From an uncultured Candidatus Rokubacteria bacterium (GTDB taxonomy: Bacteria; Methylomirabilota; Methylomirabilia; Rokubacteriales; CSP1-6), in contig CAVUPM010000002.1 of assembly GCA_963743355.1 (NCBI GenBank), forward strand, positions 2,631,766 to 2,695,765: a DNA stretch of 64,000 nt. Reading direction: 5' to 3'. The stretch's first letter is position 1, and each line of letters begins with the position of its first letter. The translations under genes and the position numbers were made by a program. Below are positions 4,852-47,575 of this stretch, in pieces. The notes under the pieces were generated by a model. That model saw nothing but the letters and a program-made list of their open reading frames with translations. It was not told the origin of the DNA and did no database searches.

Positions 4852-6425
4852 CGCGCATCCCGGAGCTCACGAGGGCGGTCGGCGAGCAGCTCGCGCACGG
4901 CGTGACCGACGTGCGCACGGTGCGCGACAACGAGCTCCACTGCTCGGTCGACCCGGCCGCCGTCCCGGCGCTGGCGAGCCTTCTTCGGGCGGGGTTCGGC
5001 GGGGAGCTGGTCTTCATGGCCGCCGCCGACCGCCGCGCGGACCGGGCCGCGTTCGAGGTCCACTATCTCTTCACGCATCAGCGGGAAGACTGGTTCGTCC
5101 ACGCGTCGGCCACCGCGCCGGCCGACGCGCCCGTGATCCACTCGCTGGCCACGTTTCACTACCCGGCCTCGCGCTTCGAGCGGGAGATCTACGACCTCTT
5201 TGGAATCATCGCCGATGGTCATCCCGACCCCCGGCCCCTCGTCCGCCACGGATTCTGGCCGCCCGACTACTTCCCGCTGCGCAAAGACGCCGTCCCGCGC
5301 GAGTTCACCGACGACGGGCGCGCGTTTCCCTTCACCGAGGTGGGCGGGGAGGGCGTCTACGAGATCCCCGTCGGGCCGGTGCACGCCGGGATCATCGAGC
5401 CCGGGCACTTCCGGTTCAGTGTGGTGGGCGAGACGATCATCGACATGAAGTCGCGGCTGTACTTCACCCACAAGGGGACCGAGAAGCTCTTCGAGGGGCG
5501 CGAGCCCGCCGCCGGCGTCGAGCTGGCCGAGCGGATCTCCGGGGACACCACCGTGGGCCATGCGCTCGCCTTCTGCCAGGCGCTGGAGGCGGCCGCCGGA
5601 GTCCCGGCGCCGGAGCGGGCGGCCTACCTGCGGGTCGTCCTCCTCGAGATGGAACGCCTTTACAACCACGTGGGGGACTTCGGGGCGATCGCGAACGACA
5701 CCGGCTACGCGGTGGCGCACTCGCATTGCTTGCGGATCCGCGAGCGGCTGCTGCGCCTGAACAAGCGGCTCACCGGCAACCGGCTGCTCCGCGGCGGCAT
5801 CGTCCCGGGCGGCGTCGGGGTGGACCTCCCGGCGGGGCTGGACCTGCCGGCCGAAGTGGACGCCGCCCTGCGCGACTTCGAGGAGATCGCCGGGCTGGCC
5901 CTCGAGAACACGCTCGTCCTGGACCGGCTCGAGGGAACCGGGCGACTGACCACGGCGACCGCGCGCGACCACGGCGTCCTGGGCTACGTCGCGCGCGCCT
6001 CCGGCATCGATATCGATGTCCGCCGGGACCACCCGTTCGCGGCCTACGCTCACCTGTCCTTTCGGGTCCCGGTCTTCGAGTGGGGGGACGTCAAGGCGCG
6101 GACGCTGGTGCGCGTGGACGAGATGCGTGAGTCGGTCAAGCTCATCCGGCAGGCCGTGGACCGGCTGCCGGCGGGGCCGCTGACGGTCCCGCTGCCCGCA
6201 CTCCCCGCCTTCGCCCCGGCCTTCGCGCTGGTGGAGGGGTGGCGGGGCGCCATCATCCACTGGGTGATGGGCGGGCCCGACGGCCGGCTCTACCGCGTGA
6301 AGGTGATGGACCCGTCCTTCCTGAACTGGCGGCCGCTCTCGTACGCGCTGCTCAAGAACATCGTTCCCGACTTCCCGCTCTGCAACAAGTCGTTCAACCA
6401 GTCCTACTCCGGGAATGACCTATAG
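4848..6425 (+). CDS. HyfG/HycE-like large subunit: a NuoC-like N-terminal domain fused to a NuoD/[NiFe]-large-subunit-like domain; the Ni-Fe-ligating cysteine motifs are not conserved
   Basis: The N-terminus is NuoC-like (…FEREIYDLFGI…), followed by a NuoD/HycE-like body (ERISGDTTVGHALAFCQALE, LEMERLYNHVGDFG). Where HycE carries RxCGxCxxxH there is SGDTTVGH, and the C-terminal DPCxxC position reads DFPLCNKSF, so only 1 of the 4 expected Cys is present. Confidence 0.8.
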   Translation: MTRIPELTRAVGEQLAHGVTDVRTVRDNELHCSVDPAAVPALASLLRAGFGGELVFMAAADRRADRAAFEVHYLFTHQREDWFVHASATAPADAPVIHSLATFHYPASRFEREIYDLFGIIADGHPDPRPLVRHGFWPPDYFPLRKDAVPREFTDDGRAFPFTEVGGEGVYEIPVGPVHAGIIEPGHFRFSVVGETIIDMKSRLYFTHKGTEKLFEGREPAAGVELAERISGDTTVGHALAFCQALEAAAGVPAPERAAYLRVVLLEMERLYNHVGDFGAIANDTGYAVAHSHCLRIRERLLRLNKRLTGNRLLRGGIVPGGVGVDLPAGLDLPAEVDAALRDFEEIAGLALENTLVLDRLEGTGRLTTATARDHGVLGYVARASGIDIDVRRDHPFAAYAHLSFRVPVFEWGDVKARTLVRVDEMRESVKLIRQAVDRLPAGPLTVPLPALPAFAPAFALVEGWRGAIIHWVMGGPDGRLYRVKVMDPSFLNWRPLSYALLKNIVPDFPLCNKSFNQSYSGNDL

Positions 6426-6545
6426 ATTGAGATGGGGGGCCTCGAACGGGCCCCCCAAGCCCCCCGGGGCCCCCGGGGCGGCTCGGGACGCCCCGGCGAA
6501 GCCGTGGCGCCCCTCGATACTCCGCCAGATCACCAGACTGGCCGG
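6426..6545 (+). repeat. Intergenic palindrome-containing repeat, copy A (family also at 10868, 13588, 22838, 24205, 47431)
   Basis: The sequence TAGATTGAGATGGGGGGCCTCGAACGGGCCCCCC is followed by a module …GGCGGCTCGGGACGCCCCGGCGAAGCCGTGGCGCCCCTCGATACTCCGCCAGAT… that recurs with about 80-90% identity in the other copies. The hyfG-like TAG stop is the first 3 nt of the element. Confidence 0.7.
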
Positions 6546-6636
6546 AACGGCTGTCGATTTTCGCAGGCGATCGTCGTCGTAGGGAGTGAGTGGTCGCCGG
6601 GCGGCACCGGCCGTGGTGGCCCTCAGAGGAGGCTTC

Positions 6637-6984
6637 ATGCGCTACATGCTGCTCATCTGCGGCGACGAGAAGGTCGAGGCGGCCGTGCCACCGGCCGAGA
6701 TGACGGCCATCGTGCAAGGCCACATGCGCTTCGCGGACGAGCTGCGCGCGTCCGGCAAGATGGTCGTGGGCGAGCGCCTGCGGCCGGACGCCGACGCCAG
6801 CCGTATCCGTCTGAAGGCCGGACAGCGCCAGGTCACCGACGGCCCCTTCGCCGAGACGAAGGAAGCCCTGGGTGGCTTCTACCTGATCGAGTGCGCCAGC
6901 AAGCAGGAAGCCCTCGAGTGGGCGAAGAAGATCCCGCTCCGCCCCGACAGCTTCGTCGACGTACGACCGGTCTGGCAGATGTGA
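6637..6984 (+). CDS. YciI-like (YCII-related / DGPF domain) protein
   Basis: 115 aa, beginning MRYMLLICGDE and containing …GPFAETKEALGGFYLIECASKQEALEWAKKIPL. A strong GAGGAGG RBS lies 6 nt upstream of the ATG. Confidence 0.75.
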   Translation: MRYMLLICGDEKVEAAVPPAEMTAIVQGHMRFADELRASGKMVVGERLRPDADASRIRLKAGQRQVTDGPFAETKEALGGFYLIECASKQEALEWAKKIPLRPDSFVDVRPVWQM

Positions 6985-6986
6985 GT

Positions 6987-7909
6987 CTAGGCCGTCGCCG
7001 CCGCGGCGTTCGCGTGGGCCTCGCGCTCGACGCGCCGGTTGATCTGCGCCGAGACGTCGAAGGTGCCCTCGAGTAGCCCCCAGCCGGCCATCCATTCCCA
7101 CGCCCAGCGCGCCTCGTGCTCCGGGATCGGGCCCGGCTCCTTCAGCTGGATACGACCCAGGTTGAAGTCGTCGGGTGTGAGCCCGGCCAGCGCGGGGTGA
7201 CCGGGGAAATCGCGCAGGTAGTAGGAGACGTACCGTCGCTTGTCCGCATTGATGCGCCGGACGGCGCGCGTGACCGCGCGCAGGAACGCCGCATAGGCCT
7301 CGGCGCTCACGCTCCGATCGGCGACCCACGTCCCGTGAAAGAACGTGGTCGAGACCAGACGGCATCCGATCTTCTCGGCCGCCGTGATCCATGGCTCTTG
7401 CAATACCGTGGCCTCGAACTCGCCCTCGCAGGAGCCCGTCGAGTCGCTCGCCGCCGTGGCTGCCGGCCGCGCGGGTGGTGATGGCCTCGCGCGGCATGGC
7501 GCCCTCGAGCATCAGCAGGCCGGCGTAGGCGGTGCCGTTGCCGTAGTCGAGGGCCACGGGCTTGCCGGCCAGCTCCTGCGGCGTATGGACGCTCGAGGTC
7601 GGCGCCACCACCAGCGCTCCACACACGATCATCGAGCGACGTCCGATCTGCAGCGCGCCCACGGCACTGTCCGCCACCCGGCGGTTATTGCCGCACTCTC
7701 ACCCCTGGAACATGACGGCGTCCCCACGGTCGAGGAGCCGCCCCTGATTCGTGACCGGCTCGAGGAGCGTCCCGTCGGCGGCCGAACGGAGGTCGGCTGG
7801 GCGCCGGCGTCGCGATCCGGAGATCCAGGCCCTCGGCCTCGAAGAGGCCCTCGTCCCGGGCGACGAGCACGTCGAGGCCGTTGAACGCGAGCACCCGCTC
7901 GATCGTCAT
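6987..7909 (-). pseudogene. NMT1/SsuA-like ABC substrate-binding protein gene, disrupted by at least 2 frameshifts and an in-frame stop
   Basis: Three frames have to be joined to reconstruct the protein: MTIERVLAFNGLDVLVARDEGLFEAEGLDLRIATPAP | DLRSAADGTLLEPVTNQGRLLDRGDAVMFQG* | …GALQIGRRSMIVCGALVVAPTSSVHTPQELAGKPVALDYGNGTAYAG… | …EATVLQEPWITAAEKIGCRLVSTTFFHGTWVADRSV…. Confidence 0.6.
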
Positions 7910-9725
7910 CGTCGGCCATGGTCCGGGATCGACTCCCGGGCTTTCCTCGCGGGACTCTAGGCAGTCCGGGCCAAGGGCGCGCCGTCAACACGCTCACCAG
8001 CGCACTCTGCTGCGGCACGCGGCCGAGCAGCAGGCGCGCCATGACGTAGCCTGCGACCACCAGCGCCGTCTGGAGCAAGGCCAGCACGGACGCGGCCTCC
8101 TGCCGGCCGGTCACGGTCCAGAGAAAGATGTCCACCGACAGCATGCGGCTGCCGGGGCCGGCCAGGAGGACGGCCAGATCGAGCACCCGCACGGCGACGA
8201 CGAAGAGGAGGATCCACGCCCCCAGGATGGCCGGCCGCAGGAGCGGCACCCAGATGCGCACGACCGTCCGCAGCCAGGACGCGCCGTGGATCCGCGCCGA
8301 CTCCTCGAGCTCGGCGCCGATCTGCACCATCGTGGCGGTGAAGAACCGCGAGCCCACGGGAAGCCCGCGCGCCACGAACACCAGCACCAGCAGCCAGAGG
8401 GTGCCGTAGATGGGAAGCGCCACGAACGCCCACAGGAAGCCGAGGGCCATGACCAGCCCCGGCACCGCCCACGGCGCCCACGCGATCATGTCGAGGACCT
8501 GGCGTCCCGGCCAGGTCGTCCGCGTGACGACGTAGGAAATGAGCGCGGAGGCAACCATGCCCAGCGTCGCCGCCGCCACGGCCACCGTGAGCGTGTCCTT
8601 GATCGAGGTGAGCACCGCCGTGCGCGACAGCGCGTCGGTCCAGTGCCGGGTGGTAAACATCTCCCACGCCAGAAAGCCGCTGATCTCCATGAAAGAGTTC
8701 AGGAGCAGGACCACGAGCGGCAGCGCGCCGAACACCAGGAAGAAGCCGACGATGCAGCCGAACGGCAGCCAGCGCCACGTCCCGAGGTCGAGGGGCCGGG
8801 CCCGATATCCACGACCGGAGATCGTCGTGTAGGCGCGCCCCTTCAGGAGCTTCCACTGCACCACGATCAGGCTCACGGTGAGCAGCAGCAGCAGGACCGC
8901 GAGCACCATGGCGGGACCGAAGCGGGCGACGTGCCCGCCGTAGGCGAGGTCGTAGATCCGGGTCGTGAACACGAAGATCTTCGCCGGCGTTCCCAGGAGC
9001 TGCGGGATCTCGAACGCCTCCATCGCCACCACGAAGGAGAGGATGCCCGAGGCCAGCAGGGCCGGCAGCAGCAGCGGGAGGTTGACCCGCCAGATGGTGC
9101 GCCAGGCGCTGGCGCCGGCCATGCGCGCCGCTTCCTCGAGCGTCGCGTCCATGGCCTGGAACGCTGGATAGACGAACAGGAACAGCACCGGCGCCGATCG
9201 CACGGCGCCGAGGACGATCAACCCGCCGTACGAGTAGACGTTGACGAACGTCTCCACGCCCGGGACGATCACGCGCAGCCACTGGTTCAGCAGGCCGACG
9301 TTCGGAGCGCCGAGCAGCATCCACGCCAGCACCCACGGCAGCTCCGGCAGGAAGAAGAGGAACACCAGGAGCCCTTCCAGCAACCGCTTGCCCGGCGTGG
9401 TCGTGCGGGCGATGCACCACGCAAAGGCCGTGGCGAGCAGTAGCGCCAGCACCGTTCTCGGCACCGCGATGAGGATGCTCGTGACGAGCACGCGGTACGT
9501 GCTGGCGTCGGCGAGGACGGCGCGCCAGTGCTCCAGGGTGAAGGCGCTCGGCTGCCCCGGGGCCGCGTCCCTCACGCTACCGTAGAGCACCATGGCCAGC
9601 GGGTACACGACCATGAACGCCGTCGCCGCCAGCAAGACCAGCGGGAGGAGCGTCCGCGCGGCAGCCGCCGAGTCGCCCGGCGTGCCTGGCGCCGTCCGCT
9701 CGATCGCGGTGTCGGACGTCGCCAT
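7629..9725 (-). CDS. Fused two-domain ABC transporter permease (FbpB/ThiP-like, iron(III)/thiamine type)
   Basis: Two permease halves, each with an EAA loop (LEEAARMAGASAWRTIWRVNLP and ELEESARIHGASWLRTVVRIWVP). The last roughly 110 aa are low-complexity and run into the downstream pseudogene, so the real end is probably near 7970. Confidence 0.75.
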   Translation of the reverse strand: MATSDTAIERTAPGTPGDSAAAARTLLPLVLLAATAFMVVYPLAMVLYGSVRDAAPGQPSAFTLEHWRAVLADASTYRVLVTSILIAVPRTVLALLLATAFAWCIARTTTPGKRLLEGLLVFLFFLPELPWVLAWMLLGAPNVGLLNQWLRVIVPGVETFVNVYSYGGLIVLGAVRSAPVLFLFVYPAFQAMDATLEEAARMAGASAWRTIWRVNLPLLLPALLASGILSFVVAMEAFEIPQLLGTPAKIFVFTTRIYDLAYGGHVARFGPAMVLAVLLLLLTVSLIVVQWKLLKGRAYTTISGRGYRARPLDLGTWRWLPFGCIVGFFLVFGALPLVVLLLNSFMEISGFLAWEMFTTRHWTDALSRTAVLTSIKDTLTVAVAAATLGMVASALISYVVTRTTWPGRQVLDMIAWAPWAVPGLVMALGFLWAFVALPIYGTLWLLVLVFVARGLPVGSRFFTATMVQIGAELEESARIHGASWLRTVVRIWVPLLRPAILGAWILLFVVAVRVLDLAVLLAGPGSRMLSVDIFLWTVTGRQEAASVLALLQTALVVAGYVMARLLLGRVPQQSALVSVLTARPWPGLPRVPRGKPGSRSRTMADDDDRAGARVQRPRRARRPGRGPLRGRGPGSPDRDAGAQPTSVRPPTGRSSSRSRIRGGSSTVGTPSCSRGESAAITAGWRTVPWARCRSDVAR

Positions 9726-9729
9726 CGGC

Positions 9730-10854
9730 CTATTTCAGGCCAGCCGCCTTCAGGTGGGGCTCGGCCTTGGCCGACCACTCGAAGAACAGCTTGGAGCCGA
9801 ACTCGTAGGTGTCCGGGTTGTTCGGAAACGGCTTCGCCGTCGCGAAGTGGGCCAGCTCGGGGATGGACGGCTTCACGTCTCGGCGGATGAACGGCCCACC
9901 CGGGTCGTCGGCCTGGATCTGCTGCGCTGACTTCGTCAGCAGGTAGTTCAGGAAGACCCGGCCGGCGTTGGGGTGAGGCGCCCCCTGGAGCAGGTTGATA
10001 CCGCCGGTCAGAAGCATCACCCCGTCCTCCGGCACGACCAGACGGAACGGATGCGGCTTGGGCAGTCGCCAGATGTCCGCGGCGCCGACCTGCGTGGGAT
10101 GGATGAAGATGCCGTACTCGCCGCGGGCGATCTGCTTGGGCGCGTCGATCTCCGCCCGGGTCAGGGCCTTCACGTTGGCAATGACCTTGCGCAGGTGCTC
10201 GTCACCGTAGGCGCGCCAGGCATAGGCGGCCCAGCGCGAGCCGGGGGAGGGGCCGATCGGCTCGGAGAGGACGATGAGGCCCTTGTACTTCGGATCCTCC
10301 AGGTCCTTGTAGCTGCGCGGCCCCATCTCGGGCGGGACGAGCTTGTTGTTGACGAGCAGGAAGTACCCACCGGCGGTGAAGTGCAGCGTGTGGCCGTGGC
10401 CCGCCTTCACGTCGACCAGGGGGTCGACGATCCACTGCACGCCCGGCTCCTGGAGCGCGGGGAGGGTGCCGAACGATTGATCCAGCTTGCGGGCCGCGAG
10501 GCGCCGGTTTTCCGGGCTCCCCGAGGACCGGACGTCGATGCTCGGCTTGCCCGCGGCACGCTCGGCGTTCCAGCGCGCCTCGAAGTCGCCGGTGCGGCCG
10601 GGCGACAGCTCGACCCTGATGCCGTACAGCCGCTCGAACTCCCGCGCGTGCCGTTCCGTCGCGGCGCCCGGCGCGCCAAAAAACGACCAGACCACCACGC
10701 CCTCCTTCTTGGCGGCCGCGACCACCTCGTCCCAGGCCTTCGCCGAGGCCGGCGGGCTGCCGCCCGTCTGGGCCATGGTCCGCGGCCCGGCCACGAGCAC
10801 GAACAGCACGAGCCCCACGGCGCCAACCATCAACAGGCTTGTCCTGTATGTCAC
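9730..10854 (-). CDS. ABC transporter periplasmic substrate-binding protein, Fe3+/thiamine type (FbpA/AfuA-like)
   Basis: N-terminal signal peptide (MTYRTSLLMVGAVGLVLFVLVAGPRTMAQ), about 370 aa. Sits between the ATPase and permease genes of the same operon. The start is GTG, preceded by a GGGAGGGG RBS. Confidence 0.8.
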   Translation of the reverse strand: MTYRTSLLMVGAVGLVLFVLVAGPRTMAQTGGSPPASAKAWDEVVAAAKKEGVVVWSFFGAPGAATERHAREFERLYGIRVELSPGRTGDFEARWNAERAAGKPSIDVRSSGSPENRRLAARKLDQSFGTLPALQEPGVQWIVDPLVDVKAGHGHTLHFTAGGYFLLVNNKLVPPEMGPRSYKDLEDPKYKGLIVLSEPIGPSPGSRWAAYAWRAYGDEHLRKVIANVKALTRAEIDAPKQIARGEYGIFIHPTQVGAADIWRLPKPHPFRLVVPEDGVMLLTGGINLLQGAPHPNAGRVFLNYLLTKSAQQIQADDPGGPFIRRDVKPSIPELAHFATAKPFPNNPDTYEFGSKLFFEWSAKAEPHLKAAGLK

Positions 10855-10867
10855 ATCGCCCCTCCCA

Positions 10868-10970
10868 GTGAGACTGGGGGCCCCGACATGGCCCCCAGAC
10901 CCCCAATCGCTCGGGGCGCCCCGGCGGAGCCGTGGCGCCCCTCGACATTCCGCTCAGATTCCTAGACTAG
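10868..10970 (+). repeat. Intergenic palindrome-containing repeat, copy B
   Basis: GTGAGACTGGGGGCCCCGACATGGCCCCCAGA…GGCGCCCCGGCGGAGCCGTGGCGCCCCTCGACATTCCGCTCAGATTCCTAGACTAG. It exactly fills the gap between the ATPase stop and the SBP start, and its terminal CTAG supplies the ATPase stop codon. Confidence 0.7.
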
Positions 10971-12049
10971 CGGGCGCGCCAGGCGCGGATCGCGCTCGCG
11001 GGAATCTCGAGCTGCACGACCGTTCCCTTGCTCAGCGGCTCGATCACCGGGCCCGAGGCGCGGACCCGGGCCGCGCCCACGGCGACGACGTACTCGACGC
11101 GCTCGCCCAGGTAGATCGCCGACAGGACCGTGCCCTGCCAGTGGCCGCCGGTCGAGGGCGGGCACACCCGGACGTCGGCCGACCGGAACGCGAGGACGAT
11201 CTCCTCACCGTCCTGCCAGCCCTGGTCCGGCGCCAGGGCCACCTCGCCGCCGTTGAGGCCGTCCGCGCGCGCCACGCAGACGCCGTCCGGCCGTCGCGTC
11301 ACCCGGGCCCGGACGTGATCGGCCTGGCCGAGGAAGTCCATCACGAACCGCGAGCACGGCTGCTCGTAGATCTGCCGCGGCGTGCCGGCCTGGGCGATCC
11401 GGCCGGCGCTCATCACGAACACCCGGTCGGACAGGATCATGGCCTCGGCCTGGTCGTGGGTGACGAAGACGGTGGTGACCCCGACGCGGGCCTGCAGCTC
11501 CTTCAGCTCGATGCGCATCTCCTCGCGAAGCCGCGCATCGAGATTGGAGAACGGCTCGTCGAGGAGCAGCACCTCGGGGTCCGCCACCAGCGCGCGCCCG
11601 AGCGCCACTCGCTGCTGCTGGCCGCCGGAGAGCAGCGGCGCCGGACGATCGTGGAACCCCTGCAGGCCGAGCGTCACCAGGATCGCCATGACCCGTTCCC
11701 GGATCTCGCCCGGGCGCAGCCGTTTTTCCCGGAGCGGAAAGGCGATGTTCTCGAACACCGTCATGTGCGGCCAGATGGCGTAGGTCTGGAACACCATGCC
11801 CATGCGCCGCTTCTCGGGCGCGAGGAAGACGGCCTGCGTGGTGGATGTCAGCAGCCGCCCGCCCACGGACACCTCACCCGCGTCGGGCCTCTCGAGGCCG
11901 GCGATGAGCCGGAGCGTGGTGGTCTTGCCGCAGCCGCTCGGCCCGAGCAGCGTCGCGAGTGATCCGGCGGGAACCTCGAATCCCACGCCGTTCACGGCCA
12001 GGGCCTTGCCGAACGCCTTCGTCAGACCGCTCACCCGGATGTCCGGCAC
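10967..12049 (-). CDS. ABC transporter ATP-binding protein (FbpC/PotA-like importer ATPase with C-terminal TOBE-like domain)
   Basis: Walker A GPSGCGKTT, signature LSGGQQQRVALGRAL and Walker B LLLDEP. A GTG start at 12049 follows GGAGG with a 7-nt spacer. The listed ORF extends further upstream but that stretch is low-complexity. Confidence 0.85.
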   Translation of the reverse strand: MPDIRVSGLTKAFGKALAVNGVGFEVPAGSLATLLGPSGCGKTTTLRLIAGLERPDAGEVSVGGRLLTSTTQAVFLAPEKRRMGMVFQTYAIWPHMTVFENIAFPLREKRLRPGEIRERVMAILVTLGLQGFHDRPAPLLSGGQQQRVALGRALVADPEVLLLDEPFSNLDARLREEMRIELKELQARVGVTTVFVTHDQAEAMILSDRVFVMSAGRIAQAGTPRQIYEQPCSRFVMDFLGQADHVRARVTRRPDGVCVARADGLNGGEVALAPDQGWQDGEEIVLAFRSADVRVCPPSTGGHWQGTVLSAIYLGERVEYVVAVGAARVRASGPVIEPLSKGTVVQLEIPASAIRAWRAR

Positions 12050-12156
12050 AGCCCGCCTCCTTGCAGTCCTGTCCTGATACCCGAGAACGAGGGCGAAGTC
12101 CAGAGACGGCGGTGCCCGCGGCCTCCGCCGCGCCTGGCTTCGAGTACCATCGGCGC

Positions 12157-13470
12157 GTGGGATGGATCCCGGGCGGGCCGGTCGCGGATGGAGGCGTCCC
12201 CGCGCGCGTGGCCGAGGCGTTCCGGCTGGAGTCCGCGCGCGTGGTCGCCTCCGTGCTGCGGATCGTGCGCGACATCGACGCGGCGGAAGAGATCGTGCAG
12301 GAGGCGTTCGCGCGGGCGCTCGATCGGTGGCCCACCGGCGGCACACCCGATCGCCCGGGCGCGTGGCTCCTGACGACGGCCCGGCGGCGCGCGCTCGATC
12401 ACCTGCGCCGGGCTCGCCGGGCCGGCCGGCACGCCGCCGCGCTCGCGTACGAGGCGGCGCTCGACGCGCTCGACGAGGAGCCCGGCGTGACCGAGCCCGG
12501 AGCGATCGCCGACGACCGGCTCCGCCTGATCTTCACGTGCTGCCATCCGGGCCTGCCGGCCGACAGCCGCGTCGCGCTCACGCTGAGGCTGGTCGGCGGC
12601 CTGTCGACGCCGGAGATCGCGCGGGCCTTCCTCGTGCCCGAGCCCACGATCGCCCAGCGGCTCGTGCGCGCGAAGCGGACGATCCGCGACCGCGCCCTGC
12701 CCTACGAGGTCCCCGAGGGCGCCGAGCTGGCCGCGCGGCTGCCGGCGGTACTCGCGGTGGTCTACCTGATCTTCAACGAGGGCTACGCCGCCCACGCCGG
12801 CGACACTCTCGTGCGTCACGACCTTTGCCACGAGGCCATCCGCCTCGGGCACATGCTCGCCGAGCTGATGTCCGACGAGTCGGAGGTACTGGGACTCCTG
12901 GCGTTGATGGAGCTGCAGGCCTCCCGGGGCGCGACGCGCACCGACGCCGACGGCGAGCTCGTCCTGCTCGCCGATCAGGATCGGGCGCGCTGGGATCGGG
13001 CGGCCATCGCGCGCGGCCTGGCCGGGCTCGACCGCGCGGGGCGGCTGGAGCGAGCCGGACCGTACCAGCTGCAGGCGGCCATCGCCGCCTGCCACGCGCG
13101 CGCGGGCTCCTGGGAAGCGACGGACTGGTCGACGATCGTCGGGTACTACGATGCGCTCGCGGCCGTCACGCCCTCGCCGGTGATCGAGCTGAATCGAGCG
13201 GTGGCGATCGGCCTGGCGTCCGGACCGGCGGCTGGCCTGGCGGCGCTCGACGGCATCGGCGCCGACGCGCTGCACGGCTATCACCTGCTGCCCGCCGCCC
13301 GCGCCGACTTCCTGCGCCGCCTCGGGCGCTGGACGGAGGCGGCCGCGGAGTACCGCCGGGCGCTCGAGCTCGTCGACAATGCCCGTGAGCGATCGTTCCT
13401 CGCAGCCAGGCTCGCCGCCTGCGAAGCCCGGCGTGACGCGGGCGGGGTGGGCGTGAGGTGGGGTCCGTGA
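12157..13470 (+). CDS. ECF-type sigma-70 factor with a long C-terminal TPR-like extension (ECF42-like)
   Basis: Sigma2 and sigma4 regions are present (…IVQEAFARALDRW…, …LVGGLSTPEIARAFLVPEPTIAQRLVRAKRTIR). The YLIFNEGY motif is followed by about 200 aa of helical repeats. A YciI/DGPF gene lies nearby at 6637. The start is assigned to an in-frame GTG. Confidence 0.75.
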   Translation: MGWIPGGPVADGGVPARVAEAFRLESARVVASVLRIVRDIDAAEEIVQEAFARALDRWPTGGTPDRPGAWLLTTARRRALDHLRRARRAGRHAAALAYEAALDALDEEPGVTEPGAIADDRLRLIFTCCHPGLPADSRVALTLRLVGGLSTPEIARAFLVPEPTIAQRLVRAKRTIRDRALPYEVPEGAELAARLPAVLAVVYLIFNEGYAAHAGDTLVRHDLCHEAIRLGHMLAELMSDESEVLGLLALMELQASRGATRTDADGELVLLADQDRARWDRAAIARGLAGLDRAGRLERAGPYQLQAAIAACHARAGSWEATDWSTIVGYYDALAAVTPSPVIELNRAVAIGLASGPAAGLAALDGIGADALHGYHLLPAARADFLRRLGRWTEAAAEYRRALELVDNARERSFLAARLAACEARRDAGGVGVRWGP

Positions 13471-13587
13471 GACCCGTTCCCGTCATGCCGGACCGGGCGC
13501 CCTCCAGCCGGATGGAGCCCAGCCGAGGCGGATCCGAAGCGGACTCCCGCCGCGTGGTAGCACGGACCCCACCTCATGCCCACCCCG

Positions 13588-13697
13588 CCCGCGGCGCACC
13601 GGTCGAGGAGCGTTACGGCTCCGCCGGGACGCTCCGAGCCGCCCGGGGGGCGTGGGGGGCCATGTCGGGGCCCCCCAGCGGAATGATCGCGTAGAAG
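13588..13697 (-). repeat. Intergenic palindrome-containing repeat, copy C (inverted orientation)
   Basis: Its reverse complement reads …GCTGGGGGGGCCCCGACATGGCCCCCCACGCCCCCCGGGCGGCTCGGAGCGTCCCGGCGGAGCCGTAACGCTCCTCGAC…. It overlaps the 3' end of the cupin ORF. Confidence 0.65.
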
Positions 13698-14053
13698 CGG
13701 GGCTGGTCGCCGACCACGCGGGTGACGTGGCCCTGGCCGGTGAGGTCCTCGGCGAGGACGACGTCGCCGGGCCCGACGCGGGCCACCGTGCCGTCGCCGA
13801 CCTCGATCTCCGCCAGACCCGAGAGCGAGATCGAGTACTGCCGCCGGGGCGCGCAGTGCCAGTCGAGCACGTAGCCGGGCGGCGAGACGCGAAACGTGAT
13901 GCCGGTCGCTGCCTGCGTGGGGGCCGCCTCGCCGTACGCGCCCTCCACGTCGACGAACGGCTTCATCGCCAGCGGCGTCTCCTCGACGTGCGACTTGCCA
14001 TCCGGACCGCTGTACACCCGCCAGATCTTCGGCACGTCCGTCGGCCGGCTCAC
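13613..14053 (-). CDS. Cupin-domain protein
   Basis: About 147 aa from a GTG that overlaps the upstream TGA (GTGA). Cupin-like core GDGTVARVGPGDVVLAEDLTGQGHVTRVVGDQPRFYAI. The last roughly 25 codons are encoded by repeat copy C. Confidence 0.55.
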   Translation of the reverse strand: MSRPTDVPKIWRVYSGPDGKSHVEETPLAMKPFVDVEGAYGEAAPTQAATGITFRVSPPGYVLDWHCAPRRQYSISLSGLAEIEVGDGTVARVGPGDVVLAEDLTGQGHVTRVVGDQPRFYAIIPLGGPDMAPHAPRAARSVPAEP

Positions 14054-14987
14054 ACGCCCTGGAGCTGGGCGCGACCCCAGGCCACGTCGACCGCGCCCGC
14101 GGGCGTGACGACGGCGCCGGGGACCTCCGGCACGACGGGGTCCTGGCCGGCCACCGTCGTGCGATGCATCACGCGGCGGTACGCGCTCTCGTCCCACGGG
14201 CGCCCGCGGTGCAGCACGCAGCGGTTGTCCCACATCACCAGATCGCCCGGCTGCCAGCGATGCGTGTAGACGAGCCCGGGGCGCGTCGCGCGCTGGAGCA
14301 GATCGCGGAGCAGCGCGCGCGCCTCCTCGGTCGGCATGCCGACGATCTCGCAGGCGTGCGACCCCACGTAGAACGCCTTGCGCCCATGGCGCGGGTTGGC
14401 GCGCACGAGCGCCTGGGGGACGGGCGGAACCTGGGCGGCGTGATCCGGCGGCAGCAGGCCGTCGTCGATCAGGCCGCGCGAATAGACGAAGCTGTGGATG
14501 GCGACCCTGCCCTCGAGGAACCGCTGCGTCGGCTCCGGCAGCGCCTCGTAGGCGACCCGCATGCTCGCGAACTCCGTCTCGCCTCCCCGGGTGGCACCTC
14601 GCGCGCCGACAGCAGCGAGGCGTGGGCCGGCACGCGCTTGAAGGAGCTGTCGCTGTGCCACATCTGGTTGCCGGCGTTGAAGAGGTTGCGCTTGTCGCCG
14701 GCCGGGATCAGCCGGTCCTCGGCGTCCACGTTGGCGAGGTTCGAGACCTCGGGGGCAACCCGGGCCAGCGAGGTGATCGTGCGGAGCGACGTCTCGAGCG
14801 GTCCGAACCGGCGGCTGAAGGCGATCTGCGCCTCGTCGCCGAGCTGCTGCCCGCGGAAGAGCAGCACCGAGTGCTCGTCGAAGGCCTCGACGATCTCGGC
14901 GAACCTCGCGTCGTCCACGCCCCGGACGTCGACGCCCAGGATCTCGACCCCGAAGCACGGATGCAACCGACGCGTCTCGAGCGCCAT
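14050..14987 (-). pseudogene. TauD/TfdA-family alpha-ketoglutarate-dependent dioxygenase with a single frameshift
   Basis: The N-part (MALETRRLHPCFGVEILGVDV…HSDSSFKRVPAHASLLSAREVPP) and C-part (GGETEFASMRVAYEALPE…HRWQPGDLVMWDNRCVLHRG) are in different frames. The break is in a C/G run near 14590. GGGAGG RBS. Confidence 0.75.
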
Positions 14988-15007
14988 GGCAGCGTCCTCC
15001 CTGAGGG

Positions 15008-16610
15008 TTACTCGGCCAGCCAGACGGTGTCGAGCGTCTGGTTGAGGAAGTGGCTCGGCATGATCGTCCAGCCTCGGACCTTGGCGTTGTGGGGAATGAT
15101 CCGGTGCCACTGGAAGCCCATGATGAAGTGCACTTCGTCGTCGTAGAGGCGCTTCTCGAACTGCCGCAGGAGCCGCCGCCGTTCCTCGGGATCCAGCGTC
15201 CGCGACTGCCGGGCGTAGAGGTCGTCCATCACGGTGTCCTTGTGCTTGCCGTAGTTCACCGGCGACGTCGTGAGGAACCAGTGGATGTCCATGTCGGGCT
15301 CGACGATCGAGTTGCAGGGCGCGGTGACGGCCACCTCGAAGTCGCCGCTTCCTCAGCGCCCCGAACCAGCCGGACGTCTCCAGCGACACGTGCTTGACGG
15401 TGATGCCCACCTGCCGCCACTGATCGATGAGCCAGATGCCGAACGGCTCGTAGGGCTGCGGCACCGCGCGGTTCAGCAGCGTGAACGACAGGTTCTCGAC
15501 GCCGGCCTCCTTGAGCAGGCGCCGCGCCTCGGCCCGCGCCGCGTTGATGTCGCGGCCGTAGCCGGCCAGCTTCTCCAGCTCGGCCGGCGGCGTCGCCCAC
15601 GGGGTGCCGGGCACCTGGATGCCGGCCACCTCCTTGATCAGCGCGATCCGGGAGAGCGCCTTGGAGCCCTCGTGCCGGTCGAGCGCCAGCGTGAGCGCGC
15701 GCCGCACACGCTTGTCGTCGAACGGCTTCTTCTGCTCGTTGGGCGTGACCCCGATGGAGCAGTTCCACGGGCTCTCCTGCACCGTGATCTTGCTGCCGAG
15801 CGCGTTCACCAGGCTGTCGCGGTCGGCCGGCGTGAAGCCGCGGAACTGGATCATGGCGCGCTCGCCGCGGACGGCCGCCACCTGGGCGGAGGCGCTGGGG
15901 ATGAAGATGGCGCGAAAGCCGTCGAGGTAGGGCTTGCCCTTGTCCCAGTAGTCGGGGTTCTTCTTGCCGACCCAGTGCGAGCCGCGCACGTACTCGACGA
16001 ACTTGAAGGGGCCGGTGCCCATCACGTTCTTCTCGTACCAGCGCGGGTCCTTGGCCAGGATGTCGGCCTTGTAGATCCAGTTCCAGGGCGACGCCAGCTG
16101 GGCCATGAACGAGGCTTCCGGGCGCTTCAGCCGGAAGACGACCGTGTCCGGCGTCGGCGCCTCCACCGACTCCACGGTGGCGTAGGTGGCCTGGCGGCTC
16201 GAGACGACGCCGGGCGGCGGGAAGATGATGTGGTCGTAGGAGGCCTTGACGTCCTTCGACGTCATCACGCTGCCGTCGTGGAACTTCACGCCCTGGCGGA
16301 CCTTGAACGTGTAGGTCCGGTGGTCCGGCGAGATCGTCCACGACTCGGCGAGGTCGCCCACGAACTTGGTGCCGGTGCGGTCGGTGGGATCGACCCGCAT
16401 CAGCGTGTTGTACTGCGGCGCCCTCGGGTGGAGCATCGCGAACGTTTCCTCGCGGTGCGCGTCGAAGCTCGGGGGCTCGGCGGCGACGACGAAGACCAGC
16501 TCGCCGCCGCTGCGGGGTTTCTCCTGCGCGGCCGCCGGCGCGACCGCGGCGAGGGTGATGAGCAGAGCCAGGCACGTGACGATCGACACTGATCTGACGC
16601 ACAGCCTCAT
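15008..16610 (-). pseudogene. ABC transporter substrate-binding protein, family 5 (DppA/OppA/NikA-like), one frameshift
   Basis: Signal peptide (MRLCVRSVSIVTCLALLITLAAVAPAAAQ), then the SBP_bac_5-like body to …GWFGALRKR, then a frame change near 15337 into …DFEVAVTAPCNSIVEPDMDIHWFLTTSPVNYGKHKD…TVWLAE. Confidence 0.75.
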
Positions 16611-16739
16611 GTGAGCGGCCTCCGAAGAGCGAAAGGGTGCCGGTACGATAGCACGGCCCCGGGCCGGACAAGGTTGGGGCCGGCCGGGGCGGTGTTTCGG
16701 CTACCATTCGAGGGACCGAGGCCGGAAAGGAGTCCCCCG

Positions 16740-17768
16740 ATGCCGATCGCCACTCCCGAGATCTACGCCGCCATGCTCGATCGGGCGAAGGCCGGGGCCT
16801 TCGCCTACCCGGCCATCAACGTCAGCTCCTCGCAGACCCTGAATGCCGCCCTGAAGGGCTTCGCCGACGCGGCCAGCGACGGCATCATCCAGGTCTCCAC
16901 CGGCGGTGCGTCCTACCTCTCCGGCGCCAAGGTCAACGACATGGTCGTGGGGGCCTCGGCGCTGGCCGAGTACGCGCACGTGGTGGCCGCGCAGTATCCC
17001 GTCAACATCGCGCTGCACACCGACCACTGCCCCAAGAACAACCTCGACAAGTACGTCCGGCCCCTGATCGCGATCAGCCAGGAGCGCGTCGCGCGGGGGC
17101 AAGGCCCTCTGTTCCAGTCGCACATGTGGGACGGCTCGGCGGTCCCGCTCACCGAAAATCTCGCGATCGCCCGCGAGCTGCTGGCCGCCTGCCAGAAGGC
17201 GAAGATCGTCCTGGAGGTGGAGATCGGGGTCGTCGGCGGCGAGGAGGACGGCGTGGTCGGCGCCATCAACGCGAAGCTGTACTCCACCCCCGAGGACGCG
17301 CTGCTCACCGCGGCGGCGCTGGGGACCGGCGAGCACGGCCGCTATCTCCTCGCCGCGACGTTCGGCAACGTGCACGGCGTCTACCAGTCCGGCCACGTCA
17401 AGCTGCGGCCGCCAGTCCTCAAGCAGATCCAGGACGTCGTGGGCAGGAAGACCGCCAGGGCCAAGCCGTTCGACCTCGTCTTCCACGGCGGCAGCGGCTC
17501 GCTGCTCGAGGAGATCCGGGAGACGCTGGACTACGGCGTGGTGAAGATGAACATCGACACCGACACTCAGTACGACTTCACACGGCCGATCGTCGATCAC
17601 ATGATGAAGAACTACAGCGGCGTGCTCAAGGTCGACGGCGACGTCGGCGAGAAGAAGGCGTACGACCCGCGGACGTGGGGCAAGGCCGCCGAGGCCGGCA
17701 TGGCGGCCCGCGTCGTGCGCGCCTGCGAGGATCTCCGGTCGGCCGGCACGACCCTGGCTACCTCATGA
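16740..17768 (+). CDS. fba: Class II fructose-1,6-bisphosphate aldolase
   Basis: 343 aa (MPIATPEIYAAMLDRAKAGAFAYPAINV…HTDHC…GNVHGVY…FHGGSGS). RBS GGAAAGGAG. Confidence 0.9.
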   Translation: MPIATPEIYAAMLDRAKAGAFAYPAINVSSSQTLNAALKGFADAASDGIIQVSTGGASYLSGAKVNDMVVGASALAEYAHVVAAQYPVNIALHTDHCPKNNLDKYVRPLIAISQERVARGQGPLFQSHMWDGSAVPLTENLAIARELLAACQKAKIVLEVEIGVVGGEEDGVVGAINAKLYSTPEDALLTAAALGTGEHGRYLLAATFGNVHGVYQSGHVKLRPPVLKQIQDVVGRKTARAKPFDLVFHGGSGSLLEEIRETLDYGVVKMNIDTDTQYDFTRPIVDHMMKNYSGVLKVDGDVGEKKAYDPRTWGKAAEAGMAARVVRACEDLRSAGTTLATS

Positions 17769-20306: not shown

Positions 20307-20367
20307 CGCAGGCGAGCATACGGCATACTGCCCCTCGCCGTCACCCCGCGCCAAAGGAGCCGGGATC

Positions 20368-20916
20368 ATGCCGAGAGTCGCCCCCGTCACCGGGAAGTCC
20401 GACGTGCCCGCCGAGCACCATCACGTGGTCGACGCCGTCATGGAGGTGTTCGGCAACGTGCGCGGCCCCTTCAGCATGCTGCTGCACAGCCCGAAGCTGG
20501 CCGAGCGGGTGCTGGGCCTGGTCAAGTTCTTCCGCGACGAGAGCATCGTCGAAGGCCGGCTGCGGTCGCTGGCCATCCTCACCGCGGTGCGGGAGCGTGA
20601 GGCAGCCTACGTGTGGGCGGCGCAGGTGGGGGCGGCGCGCCGGGCCGGCCTGCGCGAGGAGGCGATCGACCTGATCCGCGCGAAGGGCGATCCGGGCAAG
20701 CTGCCGGCGGAGGAGGCGGAGATCGTCGCCTACACGCGTCAGCTCATGCGCACCAACCGCGTCGACCAGGCGGCGTTCGACGCGCTCGCCAAGCGCCATG
20801 GGGCGCAGTGGATTCTCGAGCTGACGGCCGCGGCAAACTACTTCGCGATGCTGTCCGGCGTGGTCAACGCCTTCGAGGTCCCCGCCCCGCCCGACGGCGA
20901 CAAGCTGCCCGCGTGA
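20368..20916 (+). CDS. Carboxymuconolactone decarboxylase-family (AhpD-like) protein
   Basis: 182 aa, RBS AAAGGAG. Transcribed divergently from the LLM gene. Confidence 0.7.
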   Translation: MPRVAPVTGKSDVPAEHHHVVDAVMEVFGNVRGPFSMLLHSPKLAERVLGLVKFFRDESIVEGRLRSLAILTAVREREAAYVWAAQVGAARRAGLREEAIDLIRAKGDPGKLPAEEAEIVAYTRQLMRTNRVDQAAFDALAKRHGAQWILELTAAANYFAMLSGVVNAFEVPAPPDGDKLPA

Positions 20917-22834: not shown

Positions 22835-22837
22835 GTT

Positions 22838-22965
22838 TCAGTGAACGTGGGGGCCCCGACATGGCCCCCCACTCCGAGGTGCGTGGTCGAGGCGCGCCAC
22901 GCTCGATCGCGCCGCGATCGCCGCATGTCGCGCCTCCCAGAGGCCTCCGAATCCCGGGTGTAGAG
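22838..22965 (+). repeat. Intergenic palindrome-containing repeat, copy D
   Basis: GAACGTGGGGGCCCCGACATGGCCCCCCACTCCGAGGTGCGTGGTCGAGGCGCGCCACGCTCGATCGCGCCGCG…, with the second module in inverted orientation relative to copy A. It ends about 30 bp before the DUF222/HNH gene start. Confidence 0.65.
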
Positions 22966-22991
22966 TCCCGTCAGCAGAAGGAGGACTCGTC

Positions 22992-24204: not shown

Positions 24205-24285
24205 AGCGATTTCTTCACAACCTCTACGCCGCGGCGCGCCGAGCGCCGGGGGGGCATATCGGGCCCCCCCACGTCCCTAGACGCT
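24205..24285 (-). repeat. Intergenic palindrome-containing repeat, copy E (short, inverted)
   Basis: …CGCCGCGGCGCGCCGAGCGCCGGGGGGGCATATCGGGCCCCCCCACGTCCCTAGACG. Its CTAG end supplies the RidA stop codon. Confidence 0.55.
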
Positions 24286-45885: not shown

Positions 45886-47439
45886 ATGATCGTTCCGCTC
45901 ACGCTGGTGGACTTTCTCGAGCGCGCCGAGGTGCGTGTACGGCGACCGCGTGGCCGTGGTCGACGAGCCGAGCCCGCCCGGCGGCGGCCTCGGCCGCTTC
46001 ACCTACGCGCAGTTCGGCGCGATGGCGCGCAGCCTGGCCGCCGCCCTCGACGACCTCGGCGTCGGCCAGGACGAGCGCGTGGCCATCGTCTCGCCCAACG
46101 CCGCGCGCTTCCTGGTGAGCCTGTTCGGCGTCAGCGCCTACGGCCGGATCCTGGTGCCGGTGAACTTCCGCCTCAACGCCGAGGAGATCCGCTACATCCT
46201 CGAGCACTCCGGGCTCCTCGGTGCTGCTGGTCGATCCCGAGCTCGACGAGCCGCTGCGCGACATCCCGGTCAAGCACCGCATCGTGCTCGGCACCGCCAG
46301 CGACCCGCAGCTCTTCCTGCGCCAGGGCGCGCACGCCGCAGCTGCGGCGTGGCCGACGAGAACGCCACCGCGTCGATCAACTACACGTCCGGCACCACCG
46401 CGCGCCCCAAGGGCGTGCAGCTCACCCACCGCAACTGCTGGCTCAACGCGGTGACCTTCGGCTGGCACCTGGCGCTGACCGATCGCGACGTGTATCTGCA
46501 CACGCTGCCGACCTTCCACTGCAACGGCTGGGGCATGCCGTACGCGGTGACCGGCATGGGCGTGCGCCAGGTCATCATCCGCAAGATCGACGGCGAGGAG
46601 ATCCTGCGCGCGATCGAGGCCGAGGGCGTGACCCTCCTCAACTGCGCGCCCGCCGTGGTCGCCGCCGTCGCTCGACGCCGCCGCCGCGCGGCGCGGCCAA
46701 GGGCGTGGCGGTGCCGGGCCGCGGCCGCGTGCGGGTGGTGGTCGCCGGCGCGCCGCCGCCGTCCAGGACGATCGAGCGGGTCGAGACGGAGCTCGGCTGG
46801 GAGTTCATCCAGATCTACGGGCTCACCGAGACCGCGCCGCTGCTGACGATCAACCGCGCGCCGGCGGAGTGGGACGGGCTCGACGCCGCGGAGCGGGCCA
46901 GGCGCCTGTCGCGCGCGGGCGTGCCGGCGGTCGGCGTGCAGCATGCGCGTGGACGCCGAGGGCGAGGTGCTGGCGCGCTCCAACCACGTCTTCGAGGGGT
47001 ACTGGAACCAGCCGGAGGAGACGGCCAAGGCCATCGACGACGGCTGGTTCCACACGGGCGACGGCGGCTACCGCGAGGACGCCTACGTCGTCATCAGCGA
47101 CCGCAAGAAGGACGTGATCATCACCGGCGGCGAGAACGTCTCGTCGATCGAGGTGGAGGACTGCCTGTTCCAGCACCCGGCGGTGGCCGAGGTCGCGGTG
47201 ATCGGCGTGCCCGACGAGAAGTGGGGCGAGACGATCAAGGCGCTCGTCGTGCTCCGCCCCGGCGCCAGCCGCCACCGAGCGCGATCTCATCGAGCACTGC
47301 CGCGGCCGCATGGCGCACTACAAGTGCCCGACCTCGGTCGAGCTGCGCGACGCGCTGACGCGCACGGCGACCGGGCAAGCTGCAGAAGTTCAAGCTGCGC
47401 GAGCCGTACTGGGCCGGCCGTACGCGTCGGGTTAATTAG
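45886..47439 (+). pseudogene. AMP-dependent acyl-CoA synthetase/ligase (FadD-like) with multiple frameshifts
   Basis: …NYTSGTTARPKGVQLTHRNCW…, …LHTLPTFHCNGWGMPYAV…, …IYGLTETAPLL…, …[36 protein letters not shown]…[21 protein letters not shown]… are all present but in shifting frames. The TAG stop at 47437 abuts repeat copy F. Confidence 0.7.
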
Positions 47440-47575
47440 ATGGGGGGCCCCGATATGGCCCCCCATACCCCCCGGCGCTCGTCGCGCCCCGGCGAAGCCG
47501 CGGCGCTCCTCGATCCCCGGCGCTCGTCGCGCCCCGGCGGAGCCGCGGCGCTCCTCGATCGCGGGCGCGCCCAAT
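47431..47575 (+). repeat. Intergenic palindrome-containing repeat, copy F, with an internal 45-bp tandem duplication
   Basis: TTAATTAGATGGGGGGCCCCGATATGGCCCCCCATACC, then CCCGGCGCTCGTCGCGCCCCGGCG(A/G)AGCCGCGGCGCTCCTCGATC twice (47471-47515 and 47516-47560). Confidence 0.7.

Follow-up and report, generated by a model that had tools for sequence, protein, structure and literature searches.

The repetitive extragenic palindromes (REPs) of Escherichia coli probably move with the help of a single-copy Y1 transposase acting in trans, with stabilisation of upstream mRNA or modulation of termination as their presumed roles, and structural selection has been described for the hairpins of REPs and of bacterial interspersed mosaic elements (BIMEs) in this species. 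The Rhizobium-specific intergenic mosaic element (RIME) is about 100 bp long and combines two large palindromes with a spacer, with no known transposase, and the mycobacterial interspersed repetitive units (MIRUs) of 40 to 100 bp lie within operons between close genes, often occur in tandem arrays, and end in stop and start signals that preserve expression of the flanking genes. In work on REPs and REP-associated tyrosine transposases (RAYTs) (PMC3337134, PMC3116915), systems of RAYTs and REP doublets forming hairpins (REPINs) are described as vertically inherited and long-lived (PMC3337134). Here we report a family of hairpin repeats, six copies of which lie in a 64,000-nucleotide stretch (the window) of contig CAVUPM010000002.1 from an uncultured Candidatus Rokubacteria bacterium (GCA_963743355.1). 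We read this family as an old, vertically inherited, lineage-specific interspersed mosaic repeat of REP/BIME type, with a probability of about 0.6. Rokubacteria are abundant soil and groundwater bacteria known from metagenomes only, and next to nothing is known of their mobile DNA, transcript ends, and genome dynamics. A search of the accessible literature found no paper with the word of the first hairpin or on repeats in Rokubacteria, and the family is, as far as searchable, apparently undescribed.

Anatomy of the repeat and its copies in the window

The repeat is a non-coding unit of about 85 to 110 bp made up of a first hairpin (HP1), a C-run spacer, a second hairpin (HP2), and a variable right arm. 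HP1, GGGGGGCC-CCGAYAT-GGCCCCCC, has an all-GC stem of 8 bp (8 to 11 bp across the family) and a 7-nt loop. The spacer after it is C-rich (CAY-CCCCCC; C5-6-N2-4-C5-6 in the family), and HP2, which in four window copies reads ..CTCGGrGCGCCCCGG-CGrA-GCCGyGGCGCyCCTCGA, forms a hairpin of about 16 bp. The family consensus is tg-GGGGGCCCCGACATGGCCCCC-cA..CCCCCC-a.CGCTCGgaGCGCCCCGGcg.AgCCGtGGCGCtCCTCGA, with an HP1 of 23 to 29 nt and an HP2 of about 35 to 38 nt.

Pattern searches of the window were controlled with shuffled sequence. The HP1 stem pattern GGGGGGCC-N7-GGCCCCCC, allowing at most two mismatches, matched six times (at 6434, 10875, 13654, 22848, 24248, and 47442; mean of 0.25 and maximum of 2 in the shuffles), the HP1 22-mer five times (0.00 expected), and the HP2 core CCCGGCGRAGCCGYRRCGC five times (0.24 expected). 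A covariance model trained on 103 copies from other genomes and run on the window with filters off returned six significant matches, which were exactly the six copies proposed in a preliminary description of this DNA; that observation was confirmed. The remaining model matches in the window (E of 0.013 or higher) were mostly reverse-strand echoes of the palindromes, with a few unrelated weak ones. Of the six copies, four are full-length and two are decayed. They are laid out as follows.

Copy 1: 6424..6539, + strand, full length (fold and sequence; model match 6421-6539, +, 66.6 bits); left arm ATTGAGAT, HP1 6434-6456, extra hairpin at about 6458-6483, HP2 6483-6517, right arm TACTCCGCCAGATCACCAGACT
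Copy 2: 10867..10966, + strand, full length, the best model match (10862-10967, +, 99 bits); HP1 10875-10897, C-run spacer, HP2 10911-10945, right arm CATTCCGCTCAGATTCCTAGA
Copy 3: 13603..13678, - strand, core only (model match 13603-13678, -, 67.1 bits); HP1 13676-13654, HP2 13637-13603
Copy 4: 22847..22936, + strand, variant (fold; model match 22835-22962, +, 31.3 bits); HP1 22849-22870, followed by a different long hairpin at about 22889-22936 that is not HP2
Copy 5: 24222..24276, - strand, decayed (model match 24179-24283, -, 27.9 bits); HP1 variant GGGGGGGCCCGATATGCCCCCCC at 24270-24248 and truncated HP2 CGCTCGGCGCGCCGCGGCG
Copy 6: 47431..47560, + strand, full length with HP2 duplicated in tandem (model match 47429-47535, +, 87.7 bits); HP1 47442-47464, HP2a 47479-47513, HP2b 47524-47558

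Copy 1 carries the variant HP1 loop CTCGAAC and, in the fold, an additional small hairpin between HP1 and HP2, and the HP2 duplication of copy 6 has a period of 45 nt. The GC-rich module had been thought to sit in either orientation relative to the palindrome. This did not hold, as the order HP1 then HP2 is constant in the full window copies and in 120 aligned copies elsewhere; the earlier impression arose because HP2 has a dyad symmetry of its own, and from copy 4.

A lack of conserved boundaries had been named in the preliminary description as grounds against a family; the left boundary and the core turned out to be conserved, and the right arm variable. Measured from the G-run to where HP2 ends, the core is 67 to 75 nt long in 119 of 120 copies (84 nt in window copy 1). 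Conservation ends 2 to 3 nt left of the G-run and the left arm is not conserved, and at one filled locus (L040; sampled loci carry the prefix L) the Shine-Dalgarno sequence of the host gene rpmE, present also in the empty ortholog L049, lies within 2 nt of HP1; HP1 is therefore terminal. The optional right arm (10 to 28 nt overall) is almost absent in L104, L079, and L070 and measures 15 to 28 nt elsewhere, and its subfamilies are common to different metagenome-assembled genomes (MAGs), for example TTCCCCGCGTGCTCAT, GATTGCCACAGNATGTCTCAT, CGATTCGTTCACGGGCTCTGAG, and ACTCCGACAGGCTCCTAG. The modules also vary in combination: HP1 is accompanied by an alternative second hairpin, CGATCGAGCC-GGGA-GCTCGATCG, in L047, L048, L051, and L068, it is also found alone, and arrays of HP2 only occur in L076. 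Copies stand singly or in arrays, and neighbouring copies are always arranged head to tail, with 35 same-strand HP1 pairs and no opposite-strand pair within 300 nt, and the array periods are 70 to 170 nt, mostly 70 to 100 nt. The bases before the HP1 G-run, which covary with those on the 3' side, follow an N-T-G consensus (among them GTGG, ATGG, and CTGG); GTGG fits the REP foot tetranucleotide GTRG (GTAG/GTRG) but is one of several variants.

Distribution, structural constraint, and dynamics

To judge copy number beyond the window, as the preliminary description had proposed, the exact 21-mer GGGGGSCCCGAYATGSCCCCC was scanned in one genome per species (185,579 species). The word was found at no fewer than 115 loci (at least 115) in about 40 MAGs, and among the matches listed nearly all were labelled Candidatus Rokubacteria, Rokuibacteriota, Methylomirabilia, or Methylomirabilota, from MAGs whose origins include Californian soil, groundwater, Rifle, and Denmark. 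Other labels were attached to four loci that carry perfect copies (L029, L064, L083, and L084: Acidoferrum, Anaerolineaceae, "uncultured bacterium", and Binatia, respectively), which may be mis-binned Rokubacteria contigs. The closest named homologues of the NuoC/D-like protein of the window come from Methylomirabilota, NC10, and Rokubacteria, with a 92% homologue in the same MAG as L012, and by this similarity the window belongs to the Rokubacteria/Methylomirabilota lineage that carries the repeat. The covariance model found 143 matches in 774 kb (window plus 99 loci), about 38 of them beyond the anchoring copy of each locus. Many more copies than the six of the window thus exist, and the refuting condition named in the preliminary description, a handful of copies with no shared boundaries, did not arise. 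Because of these roughly 38 non-anchor copies, together with the six copies per 64-kb window, we arrive at a density that suggests one copy per 10 to 20 kb and a few hundred per genome, a figure that is an extrapolation and not a count. No copies were found in IMG/VR viral contigs, in PLSDB plasmids, or in the 12-kb prophage at 52 to 64 kb of the window.

Structural constraint was assessed on alignment A1 by setting the structure by hand and counting pairs, with shuffles and slid partners as controls. Paired cells made up 90.1% (81.5% in shuffles), 14 of 25 pairs were changed on both sides, and doubly compensated cells numbered 188 against 55.5 in shuffles. The covariation score was 0.190, compared with 0.058 in shuffles (reached by 0 of 500) and 0.019 to 0.043 when partners were slid by 1 to 3 columns. 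As the genome scan had selected for the exact HP1 word, the HP1 core could not vary in this alignment; the 2 to 3 pairs that extend its stem do covary, being paired in 90%, 80%, and 51% of copies (49%, 55%, and 29% in shuffles), and the first extension pair swaps between G-C, T-A, and C-G. Both hairpins are kept by compensatory changes. Because five of the six window copies, which were not selected for HP1, match the degenerate 21-mer, HP1 looks constrained in sequence, including its loop; HP2 looks constrained mainly in shape. When folded with ViennaRNA, as had been suggested, HP1 and HP2 formed in every full copy on both strands.

The preliminary description had also considered a transcription attenuator. 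A T-run follows neither HP1 (followed by CAC-CCCCCC) nor HP2 (followed by CCTCGAY) on either strand, none of the HP1 or HP2 hairpins was flagged in a terminator scan of 6000-25000, and for want of a U-tract the repeat is not an intrinsic terminator and finds no support as a classical attenuator. The whole window gave no Rfam match at gathering score; the best sub-threshold match over copy 2 was mir-8934 (15.3 bits, gathering 100), and the lowest E-value was that of BjrC68 (E of 0.12; 14.7 bits, gathering 39).

Comparison of filled and empty sites showed that copies are lineage-specific insertions of about 100 bp between a stop codon and the next ribosome-binding site. In two AR soil MAGs with flanking genes that are about 80% identical (glmM- and acpS-like by eye), the genes overlap at GTGA in one (L066, empty), and about 101 nt are inserted in the other (L077, filled); one end of this insert provides a new TGA two codons past the junction, and the retained GTG start follows closely on the other (..CACCAGGTGA). 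None of the orthologous junctions read between the ATPase gene and the solute-binding protein (SBP) gene contains copy 2 (51 of 68 loci fetched; transporter orthologs of 72 to 93% amino acid identity, one of 51%), for example ..cgcgaTAGgagggtcgtcGTG in L169 and a GTGA overlap in L151, except for a 45-nt remnant with GTCGAGGGGCGCC in L118 and L119. Copy 1 is absent after the same stop codon in L184 (92% amino acid identity) and L185 (85%), and the filled L040 compares with the empty L049 upstream of rpmE. Where L069 has an array of about five copies, L046 has a gap of 13 nt; the proteins on either side are 46 to 50% identical and may be paralogous. At the orthologous filled-filled site of L051 and L068, HP1 is identical and the neighbouring non-coding DNA is unalignable. 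Two further pairs (L037/L009 and L076/L057) were dropped as clean empty sites since they are rearranged.

No clean target duplication was seen in the filled and empty pairs. Left and right flank words of 119 copies held 40 direct repeats of at least 5 nt (28.5 in shuffles) and 14 of at least 6 nt (7.0 in shuffles), an excess that derives partly from tandem arrays. In the subfamily with right arm ..CAGGCTC, most of the nine copies read by eye were flanked by CTGAG...CTGAG or CTAG...CTAG. Core identity was 0.77 to 0.87 between copies in one MAG and 0.78 between MAGs, and the family is old and diversified, without a recent burst.

Position relative to genes and neighbouring features

Genes were called with a simple codon-usage caller trained on the loci themselves (about 88% coding). 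Relative to repeat orientation, the flanking genes comprised 47 ++, 51 --, 34 convergent, and 7 divergent cases. Compared with the background gene pairs of the same loci (608 co-directional, 88 convergent, and 105 divergent, against 98, 34, and 7 for the repeat; P = 1.8e-6), convergent gaps were enriched and divergent gaps depleted. A gene 3' end was touched by 95% of copies, and both repeat orientations were used equally. In 37 of 67 cases a distance of 0 to 10 nt separated the upstream stop codon from the HP1 G-run (peaks at 3, 4, and 7 nt), and the word at this flank varies (TGA, TAG, TAA, and CAT contexts). Where no further module is present, the median layout is stop, 6 nt, core, 32 nt, start in one orientation and stop, 15.5 nt, core, 16 nt, start in the other, so that copies fill the whole gap between the stop codon and the next gene. 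This fit to stop codons is most simply explained by selection, with some target preference possible: genes in these genomes are separated by very short gaps, and an insertion survives only if it falls between the stop codon and the next Shine-Dalgarno sequence or brings its own stop.

The proposal of a dispersed, unannotated repeat family of REP/BIME kind, located at gene ends and without coding capacity, was borne out. The repeat likewise explains spurious small open reading frames (ORFs) starting from ATGs in or beside HP1, for example at 22861, 47440, and 6432. The statement that all copies are intergenic or at gene ends needs correction for copy 3, which is not strictly intergenic. The gene upstream of it (13613-14053, -) has no stop of its own, reads through HP1, and ends at TAA 13615-13613 inside HP2, and the same read-through ending was found in L102 and L111. 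In all three (window 13613-13690, L102, and L111), HP1 is read in one fixed frame with the stop in the 3' arm of HP2, and the genes end in ..GGPDMAPxxP...VPA(K/E)P*, a gain of about 20 to 25 residues. In L034 (920-1026, -), one copy and about two extra partial HP2 units lie in frame inside a thiamine-pyrophosphate (TPP) enzyme, between TPP_N (residues 7-121) and TPP_M (236-351), and are translated as ..GGPEMAPHTPQRSERPGTPGALLDRLADAGTPGALLDRLADAG...

In the window, copy 1 starts 9 nt past the TAG stop (6423-6425) of the NuoC/D-like hydrogenase subunit gene, with a YCII gene downstream of the copy (neighbours were identified by Pfam). Directly after copy 1, at 6539-6563, a small hairpin followed by a T-run (TGGCCGGAACGGCTG TCGATTTTCG) resembles a canonical terminator and may be the original one of the hydrogenase operon. 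Copy 2 lies within a - strand ATP-binding cassette transporter operon and occupies precisely the interval that separates the ATPase stop (CTA 10967-10969) from the Shine-Dalgarno sequence GGGAGG of the SBP gene. Among the orthologs of this operon, the sequence upstream of the SBP gene in L156 (2300-2500; LNFM01001082) holds a different repeat of about 150 nt with a long perfect inverted repeat, cttgcggaccgcgagcatctcgctcgctcat...atgagcgagcgagatgcttgcggtccgcaag, and direct gcgcCACGGAGTGGC flanks, which looks like an unrelated element, similar to miniature inverted-repeat transposable elements (MITEs), at the same kind of site. L127 (2050-2310) carries about three tandem repeats, some 77 nt in period, of the start region of the SBP gene, its Shine-Dalgarno sequence and first codons included.

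Copy 4 lies upstream of a DUF222 gene (22992-24200; DUF222 by Pfam), and this gene, in whose product DUF222 is the sole domain detected, adjoins both copies 4 and 5. The DUF222 family is typical of actinobacterial HNH/13E12-repeat proteins. Copy 5 starts 7 nt past the TAG stop of a RidA/L-PSP gene (24277-24675, -) that is convergent with the DUF222 gene; between the two genes, at 24170-24215 beside copy 5, lies an unrelated 8-bp hairpin, TCGCTTCG-ACTACC-CGAAGCGA. HP1 of copy 6 starts 2 nt past TAG 47437-47439 of a frameshifted acyl-CoA synthetase gene, with a YgiQ radical-SAM gene downstream. Both genes are broken over several frames (45886-49600), which suggests either homopolymer indel errors of a long-read assembly or pseudogenes, and because such errors are suspected, the lengths of the G and C runs of the repeat in the window are to be read with caution.

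GC content is about 70% in the first 52 kb or so of the window and 61 to 64% thereafter. The latter part (52000-64000), which contains no repeat copy, holds the head and tail module of an HK97-like prophage with the following features.

55777-56421: terminase large subunit
57231-58184: portal
58936-59514: S78 prohead protease
60039-61340: major capsid
61452-62060: head-tail connector
62547-63275: tail tube

Interpretation and comparison with known systems

We place the repeat with REP, BIME, and RIME elements because it combines GC-rich palindromes in a mosaic, is predicted to occur in hundreds of extragenic copies in both orientations at gene 3' ends, forms direct arrays, is present or absent at orthologous sites, is absent from foreign DNA, and has neither inverted repeats nor target duplication nor coding capacity. 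A plausible course would be that the repeat is copied, now or formerly, in trans by a conserved host enzyme that recognises HP1 as a hairpin. The analogy to REP-RAYT systems would make a single-strand HUH/tyrosine transposase of RAYT kind the most likely candidate. Such a protein acting in trans and reading HP1 is favoured because HP1 is invariant across the phylum, HP2 is merely structural, and divergence is equal within and between genomes. Surviving insertions would be those just outside reading frames, with stop codon, Shine-Dalgarno sequence, and start codon left intact. Once fixed, the copies would provide very stable hairpins at mRNA 3' ends or between cistrons, acting as barriers to exonucleases or as pause or termination structures independent of a U-tract, and could be kept by structural selection, as for E. 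coli REP/BIME. A role of the hairpins at transcript 3' ends, predicted from position and covariation, is plausible.

Several results weigh against this placement in the REP/BIME class. The inverted doublet that defines REPINs is absent (no opposite-strand HP1 pair within 300 nt and 35 same-strand pairs), and a REPIN identity was rejected on this ground. When 7,894 six-frame ORFs of the window and of about 1 Mb of Rokubacteria loci were searched by phmmer with E. coli RayT and IS608 TnpA, none matched with an E-value of 10 or below; the search for a cognate RAYT or IS200-like transposase that had been called for was thus negative in this sample, a weak single-sequence test on a small share of any genome. 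By the same weak test no TnpA- or TnpB-like ORF was found in the sampled 1 Mb, and the genes between inverted copies (L003, L034, L018, and L078) were ordinary, without transposases. No identical copy pairs were found within a genome (highest identity, 0.93 to 0.96), so that nothing points to activity at present. The available orthologs, at 80 to 90% identity, are too divergent to give exact insertion boundaries and target rules. G.T and A.C mismatches were independent of transcription direction and gene orientation, and this test for selection on RNA was negative; selection could therefore act equally on single-stranded DNA hairpins. Finally, neither copies nor HP1-like words occurred in the 246 kb of soil metagenome contigs that carry the orthologous transporter operon (L116-L183), so that either these close relatives lack the family or their short-read assemblies drop repeat-bearing regions. 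With no copies in the 36 kb of L184 and L185 either, repeat density differs strongly between lineages, unless it is again the short-read assemblies that lose such regions.

A classical MITE, one of the identities first proposed, would be a deleted derivative of a DDE-transposase insertion sequence (IS) with terminal inverted repeats and a fixed target duplication, perhaps CTNAG or CTAG. Size (about 100 bp), high copy number, filled and empty sites, the CTGAG or CTAG words on both flanks of the ..CAGGCTC subfamily, and the excess of direct repeats of 5 nt or more (40 against 28.5) fit such an element. Its ends are unrelated, however, with HP1 at one and HP2 or the right arm at the other and no inverted-repeat similarity between them; tandem arrays account for part of the small excess of direct repeats, the two best filled and empty comparisons lack a clean duplication, the left arm is unconserved with host sequence within 2 nt of HP1 in L040, and no related transposase gene was seen in the sample. 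Having neither terminal inverted repeats nor a consistent target-site duplication, the repeat is not a MITE in the strict sense, and we consider this origin distinctly improbable. A palindrome-associated transposable element (PATE)-like derivative of IS200/IS605, with subterminal hairpins, no inverted repeats or duplication, and insertion 3' of a short word that the right end resembles, would accommodate two different hairpins near the ends, the lack of inverted repeats and of a consistent duplication, the head-to-tail arrays, and the short stop-codon-like words that one subfamily has at its left flank and right terminus. Cleavage of IS608-type ends takes place well outside the foot of the hairpin, whereas HP1 is terminal, 2 to 3 nt from the boundary, rather than subterminal; right arms can be nearly absent, the flank word is inconstant (TGA, TAG, TAA, CAT) with no constant target word seen, and the sampled 1 Mb held no TnpA/TnpB-like ORF. 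Possible descent from IS200/IS605 is hence disfavoured by the terminal HP1 and the lack of a constant target word, and we hold it to be quite unlikely.

The repeat might instead be a cis-acting functional site, either a phylum-specific, factor-dependent bidirectional terminator or insulator or a binding site for a DNA- or RNA-binding protein, spread by local duplication and recombination only. Conservation of the exact HP1 across many species, covariation and retention in old copies, placement at gene 3' ends with depletion in promoter-only regions, and the filled-filled site of L051 and L068 all agree with function, but there is no U-tract, copies are cleanly present or absent at conserved junctions, including those of tightly coupled operons, some lie in frame inside or at the end of coding genes, and hundreds of unrelated loci need a copying mechanism. 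As a primary explanation this is unlikely; as a secondary, exapted role it is compatible with the REP/BIME reading. With similarly long odds, the repeat could be a domesticated, phylum-wide signal of genome organisation, a mobile cassette for gene punctuation, in which HP1 would be the sequence-specific site of a conserved Rokubacteria protein, insertion would be aimed at the first few nucleotides past stop codons or at overlapping stop/start junctions, and the copy would act in either orientation and without a U-tract as terminator or insulator and as stabiliser of transcript ends. If true, this would imply a new mechanism of mobilisation or targeting, with an element that supplies or preserves stop and ribosome-binding signals. 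In a genome of 70% GC, palindromes arising by chance or artefacts of assembly or sequencing might be suspected, but this can practically be dismissed: the many frameshifts at 45.8 to 49.5 kb do suggest homopolymer errors, to which G and C runs are prone, but shuffles give an expectation of about 0, and the same 21-mer and composite unit recur in dozens of independent assemblies that differ in technology and site. Other identities were rejected, namely, integron attC sites (the copies form no cassette arrays but lie dispersed in both orientations), DNA uptake sequences (the repeat is too long and too sparse), and clustered regularly interspaced short palindromic repeats (no spacers or regular arrays).

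The family has several practical consequences. The 21-mer, almost confined to the lineage, is usable as a marker for mis-binned contigs, and a 100-bp repeat at one per 10 to 20 kb probably contributes to assembly breaks. Annotators should mask the repeat, which creates spurious ORFs and C-terminal extensions. HP1 offers a handle for finding the enzyme or binding protein that recognises it, and hundreds of independently evolving hairpins make up a natural data set for studying how structural selection acts on REP-like elements. The general view of bacterial repeats is unchanged, and the interest is moderate unless the placement next to stop codons reflects a new targeting mechanism or a dedicated regulatory function.

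Compared with E. coli REP/BIME, the repeat shares short, GC-rich, imperfect palindromes that are extragenic, lie at gene 3' ends or between cistrons, and are rare in divergent promoter regions, as well as mosaic units with linkers, tandem arrays, hundreds of copies per genome (here an extrapolated number), and absence from recently acquired DNA. It differs in that its sequence is unrelated, two different palindromes follow each other in a fixed direct order instead of alternating inverted Y and Z REPs, the median distance to stop codons is 6 nt, HP1 is conserved across a phylum-level lineage and is not species-specific, and no RAYT was identified in the sample. With the REPINs of Pseudomonas and others it has in common persistent, vertically inherited, non-autonomous hairpin repeats with the diversity of old populations and a conserved recognition sequence, but a REPIN consists of two inverted copies of one REP forming one hairpin, whereas the HP1 pairs found here are all direct. 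RIME is unrelated in sequence, belongs to another host phylum, and has been reported at lower copy numbers. MIRUs are not built on strong palindromes and are oriented with the operon, whereas the present repeat occurs in both orientations. The in-frame copies and C-terminal extensions (the TPP enzyme of L034, window copy 3, L102, and L111) resemble Rickettsia palindromic elements (RPEs), which are AT-rich and unrelated in sequence; in-frame copies are the exception here, most being extragenic. The looser definition of BIME- and RIME-type repeats, that of modular palindromes in variable combinations and tandem arrays, fits the family.

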